A stretch of DNA of 64,000 nt, from contig NC_086097.1 in NCBI RefSeq assembly GCF_963921235.1, positions 149,918,001 to 149,982,000 of the forward strand, written 5' to 3'. The notes under the pieces were generated by a model. That model did no database searches. It had not been told where the DNA came from and worked only from the letters and a program-made list of their open reading frames with translations. Every line of letters starts with the position of its first letter. The stretch's first letter is position 1. The position numbers and the translations under genes were made by a program. Shown here piece by piece: positions 55,766 through 64,000 of this stretch. The stretch is from Mobula hypostoma (taxonomy: Eukaryota).

Positions 55766-56889
55766 AAAAGATGAGGAGTAGATTGAAAACTGAGGTCAAT
55801 TTTGAATAGCCAGTGACGCCAAACAGAGGAACTCCAGAAGATGTGTAACACCAATAGGCTCTCCTAGCTTTTGTAATTTGATCCAGCAATACGTATGCTA
55901 ATAAAATGGAAAAGATGTAGAAATTCAGTTGTGGTTCATACTTTTCTTTAAGTGAAAAGTTAATAGTTGTGAATTTACAGTTACAGCAACAAGGGAAATT
56001 GTTATTGTTTGCCATCATGAGACTAAAAAATGCTGGTGCTGAGAGAGATATGGATGTTTCTCTTTCAGAAATGCAGAATGTTAACATTCATAAATAGAGA
56101 ACGATTAGAAAGGCAGATAGAATGCTGGCTTTCATTTCATTTGGCATGGCATATAAAATTCTTTAAAAATTATTCAGGCATAGAATTTGAGTGATTTTTT
56201 TAAGAAAAGCTATACTAACCTTAGAGGCAGCACAGATAAAGTTCACTATAATGATTCCTCGGATGAAGCGTGCATTTTGTGAGGCAAGATTGAATACTTT
56301 GGGTTCATACTTTCTGAAGTATATAAGAAGGAGAGGTGATCTTATTAAAATTCTAGATTGTGAGCTGGGTTTGATTATGTTTGACCTTGATAATTTCAGG
56401 GATTCCTAAATTAAAATGATGTGAGTTGGTGGGTGCCATTTGCAGGCAAACCAATACCAGTTGAGTGAGGTTTTAGTGAGACAGGAACCTGCAGTTGATG
56501 GTTAGTGGAGGTTGGAAGGTGAACATGATGAAATTGCTAAATATTGAGTGATCTTCTCAGTCCCAGTTTCTCTCCATCACAGCCTCCGTTAAGGACTTTA
56601 AAAAAATCAAAGATGATTAAATCTTATTGCCACTTAAATCCTGTTTGTGATAGATGTAATTCTGAGGTAGCTTCCTTGACACATATGTTCTGGTCTTGTC
56701 CTCTTCTAGAAAAATATTGAAAAGATAAGATAGATATTATTTCAGTCGTTCTGCATATTGATTTACAACCTCATCCTATTACTGCAAGTTTTGGACTACC
56801 AGTGATAGACCCTAGTCGTTTATCCTTGTCAGCTTGTCGTCTAATTGTATTTGTTACATTAATAGCCAGAAGATCCATTTTATTTAGGT

Positions 56890-57623
56890 TTTTTTTAGAT
56901 TAAGAGGACACGCAGTCCTCTTTCATTGTCATTTAGTAATGCATGCATTAGGAAATGATACAATGTTTCTCCAGAATGATATCACAGAAATACATGACAA
57001 ACCGACTGAAAAACTGACAAAAACTACATAATTATAACATATCAAAGTTGCTGGTAAACGCAGCAGGCCAGGCAGCATCTATTGGAAGAGTTTCTGTCGA
57101 CGTTTCAGGCCGAGACCCTTCTAACATATAGTTACAACAGTGCAAAGCAATACCATAATTTGATAAAGAACAGACCATGGCACAGTAAAAAGTCTCAAAG
57201 CCTCTCCAAAGTCCCATCATCTCACACAGACGGTGAACCTCCAGCGCCGCAAACTTGCCGATGCAGCATACTGGAAGCATCTGACCACAGTCCGACTCCG
57301 AGTCCGTCCGAAAACTTCGAGCCTCTGACCAGCTATCCGACACTGAGCACTGAGCACCATCTCTGCCGAGCGCTTCGACCCAGACTCCGGCAACAGGCAA
57401 TAGGCAAAGTCGAGGATTTGGGGCCTTCCCCTCCGGAGATTCTTGATCGCACAGTAGCAGTGGCAGCGAAGTGGGTATTTCAGAAGTTTCTCCAGGTGTT
57501 CCTCCGAGCTTCTCACGTCTGTCTCCATTAAATCAGGATTGTGCACGGCCCCTAGTTAACACATTACGATATCATTCGGAACGGTCGCACGCACTGCGTT
57601 GCGCTGCCATCTTCTCCTCCCTC
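56890..57623 (-). mobile_element. Non-autonomous retroelement with CpG-rich head (ggaggagaagatggcagcg) and LINE-type tail; carries a PLE insert at 57043-57121
   Basis: CpG-rich body, tail hairpin gaggactgcgtgtcctc; PLE insert flanked by taacatat (57035-57042, 57122-57129). Confidence 0.6.
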
Positions 57624-57689
57624 CTACTGGAATGGAAATGGAAAGATTCTAATCCCCCCACTACATTTCAATGGTTTTCGCAAACGATC

Positions 57690-57878
57690 GTTGTCATCAT
57701 CTGAACCCTTAGTGCCTAGGTGGCACATGGGGCCTCCACAAGGGCCTTCCATTTCCGCCGGTCTTTCTCTCTGCTGCTCGCTGTTACCCAGTTCATGCCT
57801 ACTTCTTTCAGTTCTACTTCCACAGATCTTCACCACGTCATTTTGGGCCTGCCCCTACTTCGCTTTCCCTGTGGGGTC
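57690..57878 (-). mobile_element. RTE-clade LINE extreme 3' end
   Basis: Minus translation TPQGKRSRGRPKMTW.RSVEVELKEVGMNW..DRRKWKALVEAPCAT. Confidence 0.8.
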
Positions 57879-57899
57879 TGAAACGATAGCACGCCAAAA

Positions 57900-60800
57900 T
57901 TTGGAAAAAATTAGGAGTGGTAATCTGGATCCTTCTGTTAAATTTGAGCCCTTGTGGGCAGCACTCGCAAGAGGGCACCACTCAAGCTACAACTGAATAC
58001 GAAGAACAATAACCCCAGAGTCTCCCGAGAGAGGGGGAGGATGAGAGACTCAACAGGATTGTCATACCGGCAATGGCCAGGACAGGAAACACGACTACGA
58101 GGAAGCTAAAGCAAACAACACTGACCGGAGAGGAATTCACAGTAAGGTGTCATTGCGGGAAAGTCTGCAAAAACATCAGAGGGCTCAAGATACACCAGAG
58201 CAAGTCTAGATGTGGATCAATGGTGACCCAAGTGCAGTGCACAGACCTAGTGTCTGGTGAGACGAAGGAGAATTCCAGCCGGGAAGCACCCCACAGAGCT
58301 GAAGATCTCTCCCCACTTGAGTCCCCTCAGCACCGAACAACAGACCTAGTGAGTTCCTCTTCTGCTACCCCAATCCATTCGTCAAGGAAAGACAGGATCA
58401 AATGGCCTAGATCATCAGACAACGTCACCTGGATGCAGTTCGATGACGATCTAGATGGTATCCTGGAAGTTGCCTTAGCAGGTCCAGTACACAGAAAGAT
58501 CGACTCACTCACAGCCATAGCGTACAATCTAGCTGAGGAACGATTTGGTCCAATGGAGCGGAGAAGCCAGCCGGAGTTACTGCGGCAACCAAATAGGAGG
58601 GAAATGGAGATTCGGTGCTTGAGAGGTGAATTAAAGATGCTCAACAAGAGGTTTAAAACCAGCTCACCGGCTGAAAAAGAAGGTATTAAGGACTTAACCA
58701 GTAAGCTGCGGGAAAAGCTGTGCAAACTCTGGAAGGCGAAACATCTACAACGGCAAAGAAGGAAGAAAGAGAAGAGGCGAGCGCAGTTTGTGAGAAATCC
58801 ATTCAGCTTCACCAGGACTCTTCTCGGCCAACAAAAATCTGGTATACTATCCAGCTTGAAGCCAGAGGTAGAGGAGTTCCTGCGGGAGGCACACAGTGAC
58901 CCACGGAGGGGTCAGGGACTAGGAACCAATCGGGCTGTGCGTAGACTGGAAAATCCGGCAGAATGTGAAGGAGCCTACACGGCAGGAAATCCAGGACATC
59001 ATCCGGAAAGCTAAAGCATCAGCTGCCCCAGCCCCAAGCAGCATACCTTATAAGGTGTATAAGAAATGCCCAAAACATCTTCGGAGGCTGTGGAAGGTCA
59101 TGAGAAAGATCTGGGCCAAAGGTACTATTCCATCAAGTTGGAAATTGGCAGAGGGATGCTTTATTCCAAAGGAAGAGGTTTCTTCCACAATTGCCCAGTT
59201 TAGGACAATTTCTGTCCTGGATGTGGAATGTAAGATTTTCTTTTCTGTGCTTGCAAGAAGGCTGACTTCTTACATGATGCAGAACCGCTATATCAACACA
59301 TCCATCCAGAAAGGCGGTATTCCAGGCTTTTCAGGGTGTCTGGAACATTAGCCTTCTGATCTGTGAGGCCAAGCAGAAAAAAGGCGACCTAACAGTTGCC
59401 TGGTTAGACCTCGTGAACGCCTACGTGTCTATTCCACATGACCTCATCCTAGAAAGACTCGACCACTACTACATCCCAGTGACTATTCGAGACATGATCA
59501 CCAGCTACCCAGGAGGATTCAAACTCAGATTTACATCAACCCATTTCACAACTAGTTGGCAGGACCTCCAGAAGGGAATTCCAACAGGGTGCACCATCTC
59601 CCCCATCCTATTTATTATGAGAACGAACCTCCTATTATCAGCAGCAGAAGATGTAACCCGCAGCCCGACGCTGGAGTCGGGCATTGTTCAGCCAGCTCTA
59701 CGAGGGTTCATGGACGACATCACTATAACAACTGTGTCACATGTCCAAGCAAGATGGGTATTGGAAACCCTGGGTAATGTAGCCACTTGGGTGAGGATGT
59801 CCTTCAAGGCCAAGAAGTCCAGGTGCATGGTGAACAGAAAGGGCAAAGTTACTAGCAAGTTTAGCCTTCAAGTTCAAGGTGAGGTCATCCCTTCCATTGA
59901 AGATAACCCAATAAAATGCTTGGGGAAGTGGTTTAATGTGTCACTGACAGATGGGGCTAATGTCACCAGTGCTGTGAAGCAGACAGACAAATGGCTGAAG
60001 AAGATCGACAAATCTGGACTTCTGGGTAAACTCAAGACCTGGCTGTACCAATAAGGCATTCTGCCCAGGCTCCTCTGGCTCTTCACACTTTATGAGTTCC
60101 CCATGACTGCCGTAGAGAGCATTGAGAGGAGAACCAACAAGCACCTGAGGAGATGGTTGGGAGTTCCCCCAAGCTTCTTTTCAGCGGACCTCTACATTCG
60201 TTCTGGGCAACTGCAGCTTCCCCTGTCATCTGTTGTGGAGGAATTCAAGGTGGCAAAATGCAGAGCCTTATTAAGCTTGAGAGATTCCAATGACGTCCTG
60301 GTAAAGCAAGCAGGTGTTACAACCAGATCTGACCGCAAGTGGGCAGCCAACGCAGCTGGGGAGGAGGCAGTGTGTTCTCTGAAGCTGCGAGATATCATCG
60401 GCAACCCCTGCGTTGGGCGGCAAGGACTCGGCTCAGTTCACTTCCAGAAGTGGGGAAACGCAAGCATAAGGAACAGGCGAGACATGATACAGGCAGAAGT
60501 ACGGATCCATGAGGAAGAGAAGCGGATGTCAAAGGCAGTGGAACAAGGGTCCCAGGGTGCCTGGTCAAAATGGGATCTGCCTAAGCACAAGATCTCATGG
60601 GCAGAGTTATGGAGACTGGAGCCCTTCCGTATTTCCTTCCTCTTGCGATCCGTGTATGACACCCTTCCTTCACCTTTACATCTGTACACATGGAGGATGA
60701 GAGAGGACCCGAACTGTAAGCTCTGTGGTCAAAAGGGGACACTGGCTCATATACTGTCCAGGTGTAAAACAGCTCTAACTCAAGGACGATATAGGTGGCG

Positions 60801-61550
60801 CCATGATAAGGTGCTTCTGGCTCTTGCTGACACACTAGAGCGGGAGAAATGCAAGAAGAGGACGACTGGCACAGATTTGAGGAAAGCCATCACCTTCATC
60901 AAAGAGGGAGCGAGGCTTTTCGTAACCAAACAACCAAAGCCCAATCTGCTGCTAATGGCCACGCCCTGGGAGATGAGTGTTGATGTGGGAAGGAGGTTGC
61001 AGTTCCCGGACGTGGTGCACACAACCCTACGCCTGGACATTGTACTGTGGTCAACGGAAGACAAGAAAATAATTCTGGTTGAGTTGACTGTGCTGTGGGA
61101 GGAGGGATGGGAAGAGGCCCACGAGAGAAAGGCCTTGAAATACCAGCCCTTTGTGCAGGAGTGTGAAGACAAGGGATGGCAGGCATGGTTGTTCCCTGTG
61201 GAGATCGGCTGCAGAGGTTTCCCAGCCAAATCAGCATGGCGGTTGTTGTCAGATCTGGGCCTGGATGAAAGGAGCAAAAAACAAGCAGCTCGTAGGATGG
61301 GGGAAGAGGCAGAATGAGCCTCTTCTTGGATTTGGAGTAGGCGAGAGGAGGGGAGCTGGAAGCCAGGAGCAGATGGGCAGTGATTTGGCCTCCACTGCCG
61401 GCCCACCAACTGGAGAGTGTCGTGGTTAAGGGTCGAAACACTCTGTGAAGGTTGTGAACCACCTGATGACATCTGCTCCTGGCTGAAGGCTACGGTTACC
61501 TTATAAAGTAACTGGAGAATGCACCCAAACGGGTGTATATAACAAGAAGA
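57900..61550 (+). mobile_element. Near full-length RLE non-LTR retrotransposon (HERO/NeSL-like), family B
   Basis: Single disrupted ORF 58073-61383: N-terminal zinc finger CHCGKVCKNIRGLKIHQSKSRC, FRTISVLDVE, IQKGG, WLDL.NAY, GIPTGCTISP, FMDD, CKLC..HIL..C, RHD, R(P>L)DIVL..ELTV.WE..K..KY. Confidence 0.95.
61361..61484 (+). ncRNA. Candidate non-circularly permuted hammerhead-like ribozyme in the HERO-like 3' UTR
   Basis: agagtg-TC-gtggtt-aa-gggtc-GAAA-cactct...aaccac-CTGATGA inside a 15-bp outer stem agccaggagcagatg/catctgctcctggct. Confidence 0.7.
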
Positions 61551-61689
61551 AACTTGGAGGCCATTTATTCAATATTTTCATATTATGTAAGTTGACCCTT
61601 TCTGAACCCTTTGTAGTAATTTTTTTGTTCCTGTTTAGAGGAGTGGAGTTAACGATAAATAATAATTTTAGCCAATGTAATATGACAGC

Positions 61690-62666
61690 AAACAACAGGA
61701 ATTCCGCAGATGCTGGAATTTCAAGCAACATACATCAAAGTTGCTGGTGAACGCAGCAGGCCAAGCAGCATCTATAGGAAGAGGCGCAGTCGACGTTTCC
61801 GGCCGAGACCCTTCGTCAGGACTAACTGAAGGAAGAGTGAGTAAGGGATTTGAAAGCTGGAGGGGGAGGGGGAGATGCAAAATGATAGGAGAAGACAGGA
61901 GGGGGAGGGATAGAGCCGAGAGCTGGACAGGTGATAGGCAAAAGGGGATACGAGAGGATCATGGGACAGGAGGCCTAGGGAGAAAGACGGGGGGGGGGTG
62001 ACCCAGAGGATGGGCAAGAGGTATATTCAGAGGGACAGAGGGAGAAAAAGGAGAGTGAGAGAAAGAATGCGTGCATAAAAATGAGTAACAGCTGGGGTAC
62101 GAGGGGGAGGTGGGGCCTAGCGGAAGTTAGAGAAGTCAATGTTCAGGCCATCAGGTTGGAGGCTACCCAGACGGAATATAAGGTGTTGTTCCTCCAACCT
62201 GAGTGTGGCTTCATCTTTACAGTAGAGGAGGCCGTGGATAGACATGTCAGAATGGGAATGGGATGTGGAATTAAAATGTGTGGCCACTGGGAGATCCTGC
62301 TTTCTCTGGCGGACAGAACGTAGATGTTCAGCAAAGCGGTCTCCCAGTCTGCGTCGGGTCTCACCAATACGTAGGCTTATAGTAGATATCAGTGGATAAG
62401 CTGTCTCCAGAGACAGAGACAGAAAGATCTAGAAAGGGGAGGGAGGTGTCGGAAATAGACCAGGTAAACTTGAGGGCAGGGTGAAAGTTGGAGGCAAAGT
62501 TAATAAAGTCAACGAGTTCTGCATGCGTGCAGGAAGCAGCGCCAATGCAGTCGTCGATATAGCGAAGGAAAAGTGGGGGACAGATACCAGAATAGGCACG
62601 GAACATAGATTGTTCCACAAACCCAACAAAAAGGCAGGCATAGCTAGGACCCATACGGGTGCCCAC
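61690..62666 (-). mobile_element. Young Penelope-like element, 5'-truncated and internally deleted
   Basis: MGTRMGPSYACLFVG..RYIDD..FLD..YYKPT fused near 62370 to GIY-YIG IGETRRRLGDRFAEHLRSV; terminal repeat to 61690. Confidence 0.92.
61788..61823 (-). ncRNA. Minimal type I hammerhead ribozyme of the PLE terminus
   Basis: Minus: AGUC-CUGACGA-AGGGUCUCGGCCG-GAAA-CG-UC-GACU; palindromic ACGU in place of stem III. Confidence 0.8.
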
Positions 62667-62669
62667 CCA

Positions 62670-62912
62670 AGCTTTGTTTGTTTTTTTTTAGTTTAGTTTT
62701 TCTTTAGTTCAGGGGGTTTTCTTTTTTTCTCTTTATAAAATATCTCTTTCATGGTCAATTACTTGAGATTGGGAGGCTAAACTATGTTTGTTACTTGGAA
62801 TCTGTGCTTGTACATGTTAACTGTTATTATTGTAATCCCGATCTCTAAGTATCATCACTATTATTGTTATGTTTAATTTTGAAACTTAATAAAAAGATTG
62901 AAAAAGAAAAAA
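62670..62912 (+). mobile_element. L1/Tx1-like 3' UTR remnant
   Basis: T-rich UTR ending aataaaaagattgaaaaagaaaaaa. Confidence 0.5.
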
Positions 62913-63710
62913 GATGATTAATTCAGGACTTTTCTTTACATACTGTTATGCAAGGGTGACTCAGTAGACATAACCAGTGGATGTGGAATTTCGGAAATTG
63001 GTGGTGCTGGGCAAGTATGATCAGCTCCGGGCGTGGTGGGGATAAAGGAAAGCTGGAAAGTAAGTAAGCAATTAATTAATTAAGAGCAAACTGATCTGAA
63101 TTGTCTTCAGGTTGCTAGGATGGGTCTTACTTAGCAATTTTAATTCTAAATTATGCAATTGCAGAACACACAGCAACATGATAACCTAATTGACTGATAG
63201 CAAACAATGACAGTCATGCTTCAGGAATGTATTTCCTTCCCGCACTCTGAGTGGCTATTGCATACAAGTAGCATTATTACATGCATGCTGAACTCTTGCA
63301 AACAAAATTTCATGACAGGACATGTCATATTTAATAATGAAATGATAAAGAAACTACTGCAATTGCATTCATTCTGCGAACACTGATTTTTATAAACAGT
63401 GCAAATAAAGCATGACCCTTTCACTAAATTGATTTAGGAAAACAGATTTCATAATCATAAAAAATGTTTGAATAGCTTGCCTGATATATGTTATTTTCTA
63501 TTCTATTTTGAAAATTTACAGCATCTGAATGTCGTCGTCCCTAAAATATTTTAAAAGTAATATAACAGGCGTCTCTCATTCTTAGTTTTCAGTCAACAAT
63601 AATTCTTCAGTGTATTTGACAATTCATCCTTGAAAAACTATTGCTGGATACCAGAGATCCAACCTGGAATTACTAATTTTATTCTCTGTACCATTTTTGA
63701 ATTTTCTCCC

Positions 63711-64000
63711 CATTATTATTTAGATGGGGAGAAAATCCAAAAATCGGAAGTGCAAAAGGACTTGGGGGTCCTCGTGCAGGATACCCTAAAGGTTAACCAC
63801 CAGGTTGGATGGGCAGTAAGGAAAGCGAATGCTATGTTGGCATTCATTTCAAGAGGAATAGTGTATAAGAGTAAGGAGGTGTTGATGAGGCTTTATGGGG
63901 CATTAGTGAGACCTCATTTGGAATACTGTGTGCAGTTTTGGGCCCCCTATCTTGGAAGGGATGTATTGATGTTGGAGAGAGTTCAGAGAAGATTTACGAG
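63711..64000 (+). mobile_element. CR1 ORF2 3' part (runs off window)
   Basis: YYLDGEKIQKSEVQKDLGVLVQD..KANAMLAFISRG..RPHLEYCVQFW. Confidence 0.92.

Follow-up and report, generated by a model that had tools for sequence, protein, structure and literature searches.

A hammerhead-type core opened between A9 and G10.1 in HERO-like retrotransposons whose longest copies are arranged head to tail

The closest described relatives of the RNA reported here are the hammerhead ribozymes of type SGC (HRIMA-1 and its variants), which are defined by their blocks S, G and C and cleave in vitro (Eckert et al. 2023, PMC10085705). Their description assumes that CUGAnGA is inseparable from stem II, whose arm follows it directly, and the search pattern requires a G right after CUGAnGA, as CUGAUGAG or CUGAUGAUG (PMC10085705). 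Among retroelements, hammerheads together with head-to-tail partial tandems are described for Penelope-like elements (PLEs; pLTR hammerheads) and for retrozymes of the kind lacking long terminal repeats (non-LTR) (PMC4209133, PMC11167929, PMC6765202). Circular RNA and more-than-unit reverse transcription have been proposed for PLEs (PMC4209133), and internal initiation of reverse transcription has been demonstrated for one of them (PMC11167929). In R2, L1Tc and other long interspersed nuclear elements (LINEs) the ribozyme sits at the 5' end and belongs to the hepatitis delta virus (HDV) class, and the templates are linear (PMC6765202). Here we analyse 64,000 nucleotides from Mobula hypostoma (GCF_963921235.1, contig NC_086097.1, positions 149,918,001 to 149,982,000, forward strand; the whole stretch is called the window), which contain a HERO-like non-LTR retrotransposon with a restriction-like endonuclease (RLE). 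Positions 61361-61484 of the window, comprising the last codons and the 3' untranslated region (UTR) of this element, are predicted to form a hammerhead variant in which the type-SGC core is opened between A9 and G10.1. Two additional helices, P1 and P2, are predicted to close this gap, giving a gap-free four-way junction. The parts of the fold are as follows.

61361..61375, plus strand, 5' arm of P1 in the last codons, 15 bp with 61470-84
61376..61399, plus strand, P2 hairpin (61376-82/61393-99), directly between P1 and G10.1, containing the stop codon
61400..61404, plus strand, stem II arm GGCCC with G10.1 = G61400, coming from upstream rather than after A9
61406..61411, plus strand, 5' arm of P4, the putative stem I-stem II contact helix
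61414..61427, plus strand, block S: stem III arm 61414-20, U16.1 (61420), C17 (61421), stem I arm 61422-27
61430..61444, plus strand, block G: stem II arm GGGUC 61430-34 (C11.1 = 61434), GAAA 61435-38 (G12 A13 A14 A15.1), stem III arm 61438-44
61450..61455, plus strand, 3' arm of P4
61457..61469, plus strand, block C without a stem II arm: stem I arm 61457-62 and CUGAUGA 61463-69 (C3-A9)
61470..61484, plus strand, 3' arm of P1, beginning directly after A9

An earlier note on this stretch had placed stems I and III, UC, GAAA, CUGAUGA, P1 and the hairpin correctly throughout, and had recognised that the block order, which is SGC, is none of those given for types I (CGS), II (GSC) and III (SCG). 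The pairings GGCCC/GGGUC and ggcagtg/cactgcc that it listed are present, and both covary across families. The note saw no ordinary stem II; however, GGCCC 61400-04 and GGGUC 61430-34 constitute a true stem II with the canonical G10.1-C11.1 pair. Its helices were right as far as they went, but a sixth, P4 (61406-11/61450-55), had been missed. It had also supposed that the order needs a pseudoknot or a dimer. The pseudoknotted monomer stands, while the dimer requirement is rejected: no nucleotide is common to two helices, all arms pair within a single strand and all six helices fit it.

Cleavage is predicted after C17 (61421), 38 nucleotides downstream of the stop codon (TGA 61381-83, inside the P2 hairpin), as the note had it, and 125 rather than about 130 nucleotides before the TAACAAG end of the element at 61540-46. 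About 33 bp (about -32 kcal/mol) would hold the two cut products together, an outcome that the earlier note had listed as one possibility. The outer pair of P4 is broken in the window copy by a T at 61455, where the other 29/30 aligned copies have G. On both strands of the window a strict S-G-C descriptor gave a single match, at this motif; 150 Markov simulations gave 0.13 core-only matches per window and none once stem II, P1 and P2 were added. A comparison with Rfam, which the earlier note had proposed, yielded no hammerhead or HDV match in window positions 56000-64000 (hammerhead E<=5) or in 8 related loci (E<=1). A GUC/GAC mispair was considered and rejected (-0.5 kcal/mol).

Relatives were collected through an alignment of the C-terminal protein region, for which 80 of 178 metagenome loci and 1 genome contig were fetched; the end of the open reading frame (ORF) could be located in 71 of these 81. 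A descriptor seeking P1, P2, stem II and the core joined without unpaired bases matched within 330 nucleotides of the ORF end in 47/71 loci in its strict form and in 57/71 when relaxed. Strict matches numbered 47 near the ORF end versus 2 elsewhere in 427 kb, and 1 of those 2 was a true motif. The 57 relaxed-match loci and the window make up 58 rows, most of which fit this gap-free arrangement, and fall into 21 clusters. The order is constant: P1a, P2 hairpin, IIa, P4a, IIIa-UH-Ia, A-rich linker, IIb-GAAA-IIIb, P4b, Ib-CUGANGA, P1b. On the aligned sequences we regard it as close to certain that some 20 families, which have diverged to as little as 36% protein identity, share the six-helix fold (I, II, III, P4, P1, P2). 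Families carrying the motif span 36-77% protein identity. The most distant one (L108, 36%) has its motif 667 nucleotides downstream, beyond the 330-nucleotide search range, with all six helices present, and we count it as support for the fold; an additional hairpin lies between P4 and stem III there (L108:2740-2880).

In most families the last part of the ORF extends into P1 and P2, and the motif lies about 170 nucleotides past it in L092/L099 and about 670 in L108. Inspected by eye, the 14/71 loci without a relaxed match comprise 4 that end too early and 6 decayed or deleted copies with remnants. The others are L108, whose motif lies further on, L100, which ends before that distance, L094, which is interrupted, and L089, which is unexplained with 181 nucleotides available. 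Among viral contigs, 43 pattern matches included no relative. Three proteins (P0095, P0096 and P0098, two of them named from teleosts) end in ...GRPSEGV or ...GRPGEGV; judged from the protein, these ends may encode block S, in which case the ORF may reach the cut site in some families.

Because optimised helix placement leans towards pairing, covariation was assessed in a MAFFT alignment blind to structure, made from the window together with 20 sequences standing for the clusters (in each case the member that paired best, with one truncated cluster omitted and one cluster represented twice). In the six helices 89.4% of 744 cells were paired, versus 68.2% in shuffled and 33-45% in slid controls. 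Two-sided, compensatory changes were found in 33/36 pairs and every helix contributed, with 5/5 pairs in stem I, 4/5 in stem II, 5/6 in stem III and 4/4 in P4, whose position suggests a tertiary contact between stems I and II. A contiguous stem II on the strand after A9 was rejected, pairing at chance level (43.8% versus 46.2% shuffled; first pair 0/21), and G61400-C61434 (G10.1-C11.1) is kept as G-C in 18/21, the neighbouring pair taking four forms; G10.1 is therefore supplied by the upstream strand. C3, U4, G5, A6, G8, A9, A13 and A14 are present in 21/21 clusters and G12 in 20/21, an invariance that is partly circular as the descriptor tolerated one core mismatch. The patterns at N7, position 17 and 10.1-11.1 were not built in: N7 is free (U13/C4/A3/G1 over 21 clusters), position 17, with any base permitted, is C9/U6/A6/G0 and non-G in 57/58 rows. 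The A15.1-U16.1 pair is U-A in 19/21. The conservation of CUGANGA, GAAA and UH, named beforehand as a test, thus held over the 21 clusters, and the central claim of the earlier note, that a HERO-like RLE element carries a non-circularly permuted hammerhead core at its 3' end, is borne out by the conservation and covariation of this core across families. In the hammerhead, G12 is the general base and the 2'-OH of G8 the general acid (PMC11300833). Given this signature, cleavage after C17 in at least some families is quite probable.

The HERO motif resembles type SGC as described (PMC10085705) in its S-G-C order, the short linker from stem I to stem II, the stem I-II helix and the full core. It differs in that block S is preceded by the stem II arm and by one strand of the contact helix, while P1 and P2 are inserted at A9/G10.1. 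There is no intact block C, that is, CUGAUGAG followed by the stem II arm, and A9 does not reach G10.1 within the one or two inserted nucleotides at most that a three-way junction would allow. Published search patterns miss the motif because G10.1 comes from the upstream strand. Novelty, which the earlier note had asked to have checked, does not extend to the S-G-C order, already published as type SGC; the A9/G10.1 break, the four-way junction and the host element are new to the literature searched. One extra nucleotide at A9/G10.1 is known, and a two-helix insertion there was not found in the literature searched. Nor did that literature, which excluded Repbase Reports, Kojima and Fujiwara 2004, Weinberg 2015 and Fell 2025 and covered the alignments in the Eckert supplement by term only, contain the HERO motif, the tandems or a hammerhead in an RLE LINE. 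The pistol-like hammerhead PDB 8YDC shares a pseudoknotted periphery, an A-rich linker and G10.1-C11.1 (PMC11300833). In its published structure, however, the strand is uninterrupted and a single loop on it has A9.G12 and G10.1-C11.1 as its short stem, a connectivity unlike that of the HERO motif. By our reading, P1 and P2 would be stacked on each other and stem II would continue from A9.G12 by stacking, and the alternative stacking would be an off state.

The element is high-copy (2247 first-look candidates in genome G000, 40 scored and 30 fetched) and its copies with an intact 5' UTR are mostly arranged head to tail. A 5' UTR pattern found 13 copies, 12 of which directly follow a 3' end of the same element, and 29/30 copies found by a 5' UTR DNA query (the best of 230 candidates, overlapping the 13-copy set) continue into it with no added bases. 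An exact 23-letter junction pattern had 46 matches. Tail-like stutters occur in 16/48 chromosomal 3' junctions while the internal junction is exact, and the latter is therefore templated. In the 42 loci analysed for upstream extension, 40 of them fetched from the 46 junction matches, the upstream piece measures from 11 to more than 1669 nucleotides; 25/42 pass the cut site and 19/42 include the whole upstream ribozyme. The putative second round is short, with a median of about 170 nucleotides. Junctions between 3' end and 5' UTR also occur in 8/50 loci of other families. The puzzle of a cut inside the element, raised in the earlier note, is partly answered by these junctions. The two units of a tandem, upstream and downstream, diverge less than random pairs do (4.5% versus 5.6%), with 26 versus 6.5 shared variants, and rare variants are shared by tandem units on both sides of the cut (5 versus 0.7 and 9 versus 1.9 expected). 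In four sequencing runs, taken as contigs and guessed to be RNA, two contigs cross the junction with fewer than 31 letters on one side and give no start or end information.

Several loci deserve separate mention. One single insertion (L155, G000:C1:127.434-127.444 Mb) consists of a 3' end piece of 1.7 kb, a unit that is nearly full, 98 nucleotides of 5' UTR and then the last 18 nucleotides of the tail; it has two junctions and begins with a short jump from the tail into the 5' UTR. The equivalents of window positions 61444 (G/T) and 61511 (A/T) are not the same in both units of some tandem pairs whose private variants are otherwise common to the two, for which hot spots of reverse transcriptase (RT) error, RNA modification or gene conversion are possible causes. 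On one contig (L035/L033) a 3' end from one family is followed without a gap by a 5' UTR and ORF that end in another family (70% identity), either an assembly chimera or a cross-family template jump. Another contig (L095/L096) carries two near-identical copies 4365 nucleotides apart from a distant family with a much longer 3' UTR, and an N-terminal ORF follows the first copy.

A linear RNA beginning at the cut permits an extension of only 125 nucleotides, and plain read-through would erode with each generation, so that some process has to restore the long upstream pieces together with the exact junction. By analogy with the proposal for PLEs (PMC4209133), cutting by two ribozymes and sealing to a circle would do so, and the arrangement suggests a PLE-like cycle in an RLE LINE. 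In such a cycle a read-through RNA from a partial-tandem locus would be cut by its two ribozymes to release an RNA of unit length bearing a 5'-OH and a cyclic phosphate, whose ends, being the two halves of one ribozyme, could be joined by the reverse reaction or by a host ligase. RT would start internally at TAACAAG on the circle, cross the sealed cut site and, after one full round, run on over the junction of 3' end and 5' UTR. The overrun would yield partial tandems and regenerate an upstream ribozyme, and the second round may be short through RT displacing its own anchored cDNA. We consider the whole chain, in which the ribozyme cuts, the ends rejoin to a circle and reverse transcription exceeds one unit, to be evenly poised, the cleavage itself being predicted. 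The wider proposal is that in HERO-clade LINEs a four-way-junction hammerhead outside the six-permutation scheme serves as a nick-and-seal device for a unit-length circle, internal start and rolling-circle copying; it is tentative and falls slightly short of such a balance. The PLEs themselves have a GIY-YIG endonuclease, a telomerase-like RT and minimal type I hammerheads often working as dimers, unlike the large monomeric pseudoknotted hammerhead of this RLE LINE.

A number of observations weigh against this cycle. P4 is tied by short linkers to the far end of stem III, which is the main structural doubt; by a rough ideal-helix estimate P4 does reach (about 41 Å to span, 8-14 nucleotides available), and how the contact helix gets there is the same open question, with the same short tether, in some of the SGC RNAs described. 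A rare variant is shared in only 6/22 tandem pairs, and pairs are discordant at polymorphic sites (by eye, 4/22 at -36 and 5 at -101), exceeding what one template molecule should give and so arguing against a single template. The metagenome contig with L035 and L033 has two families of 70% identity in head-to-tail order. Long duplicated flanks were found in only 2/26 loci, so that an origin in one event is not proven, and target-site duplications gave no consistent signal. No copy starts at 61422 among 8 pattern matches, without any pile-up at the cut site, and second-round ends spread smoothly, with only two loci starting at 61422-23. The lack of a stop there means that the copied templates were continuous at the cut site, sealed or uncut, and the smooth ends fit sealing and the absence of cutting equally. 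Since the cut products would be bound by about 33 bp, circle formation would need strand exchange, and the hammerhead of a PLE was dispensable for insertion in vitro (PMC11167929). An apparent cluster of copy ends at the cut site dissolved with more loci, and a confinement of within-pair differences to the part 3' of the cut was not upheld. A circle, homology-guided jumps following a 5' cut and a non-cutting docking fold are indistinguishable in the genomic data.

Jumps of this kind would follow if the ribozyme were active without a circle: the upstream ribozyme would only free the 5' end from a host co-transcript, as R2's HDV ribozyme does, and RT would make a homology jump from the 5' end to the 125-nucleotide redundant stretch of the same or another RNA. 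The catalytic signature would be the same, the R2 RT reportedly jumps templates, and the discordant sites within pairs and the two-family tandem fit jumps between molecules. The identical downstream ribozyme would, however, have to stay uncut or be resealed, and the locus with two junctions would take two precise jumps; we judge this account unlikely though credible. R2 resembles the HERO element in its RLE-type protein and, as predicted for HERO, in a ribozyme that processes the element RNA (PMC6765202), but the HERO ribozyme is of the hammerhead class and lies in the 3' UTR, unlike those of R2 and L1Tc. The absence of a stop at the cut site would also suit a hammerhead-derived fold that cleaves rarely or never and docks the RT/RLE protein, with tandems arising by read-through or end-to-end jumps. 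The two-helix insertion at A9/G10.1 without precedent in the literature searched points the same way, as does the possibility that the four-way junction stacks inactively. Against such a fold stand helices that share no base and all covary together, the retention of G8, G12 and G10.1-C11.1 and of the NUH rule in families spanning 36-77% protein identity, and junctions too exact for end-to-end jumps, which make it rather doubtful.

The overlap of P1 and P2 with the ORF end in most families invites a regulatory reading, in which translation through P1/P2 or binding of the element protein gates cleavage and mainly destroys or retires the mRNA. A PLE hammerhead is reported to be protein-assisted (PMC11167929), in keeping with such a switch. 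But the motif lies about 170 (L092/L099) and 670 (L108) nucleotides past the ORF end in some families, and the tandems are left unexplained, so we think a switch improbable. That hammerhead-like letters fell into place by chance might be entertained from the core-only rate of 0.13 per random window; the 47 versus 2 strict matches, 1 of the 2 true, and the covariation exclude it and leave it a negligible probability.

The host element comprises the following parts.

57948..61546, plus strand, copy of the HERO-like RLE non-LTR retrotransposon, about 3.6 kb
59278..60054, plus strand, RT fragment (Pfam RVT_1, E 3.5e-16)
60055..61383, plus strand, C-terminal region with what we take to be a zf-RVT/CCHC knuckle, RHD and PD..E..K restriction-like endonuclease motifs (RLE motifs judged by eye)
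61495..61546, plus strand, two terminal hairpins and the TAACAAG end, the proposed RT start, fused exactly to the 5' UTR in tandem copies

This copy lacks the first 120 or so nucleotides of the 5' UTR and is dead, its ORF having 2 frameshifts and 2 in-frame stops. We presume the element to be HERO from two features, RT and RLE within one ORF (the RLE by eye) and non-site-specific insertion together with the host range. Fetched copies terminate at TAACAAG in flanks unrelated to each other, in keeping with insertion that is mostly not site-specific; named protein homologues come from teleosts, lancelets, bivalves and one crinoid, which fits the HERO range. HERO elements are described as mostly without site specificity and hosted by fish, lancelet and echinoderm (PMC4640811, PMC9004415). 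The C-terminus is RLE-type, with no GIY-YIG Pfam match in the element protein, and PDB searches with the RT and the C-terminal region returned nothing useful.

The wiring of the HERO motif breaks a stated rule for hammerheads, that CUGAnGA must run straight into stem II. Neither the Rfam models nor the published descriptors that were tried detect ribozymes so wired, yet these occur across a widespread animal LINE clade. If the proposed cycle is true, an autonomous LINE clade would replicate via a ribozyme-made circle. That hammerheads of retroelements produce circular RNA on which reverse transcription goes beyond one unit is an old idea still awaiting proof, and the element lends itself to a clean test of it, because the ribozyme is large and monomeric, the junction exact and natural covariants many. 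RLE proteins are under development as RNA-templated gene writers, and a protein able to initiate internally on a circular template would be useful in practice.

The start of the 5' UTR shows, by eye, four or five small hairpins with GAAAGA/GAGAGA-type loops and UGAC/UGGC joints, conserved across families (L125:1490-1590, L035, L036, L037, L039, L042 and L044); a minimum free energy fold shows only two of them, and the array had no Rfam match. In a circle this array would lie just 3' of the RT start and is a candidate platform for protein binding or ribosome entry. Just downstream of the element, a minimal type I hammerhead of a Penelope-like element, of a known kind, lies on the minus strand at window positions 61789-61821, and a decayed copy of the Penelope-like hammerhead is found near 57058-57110.
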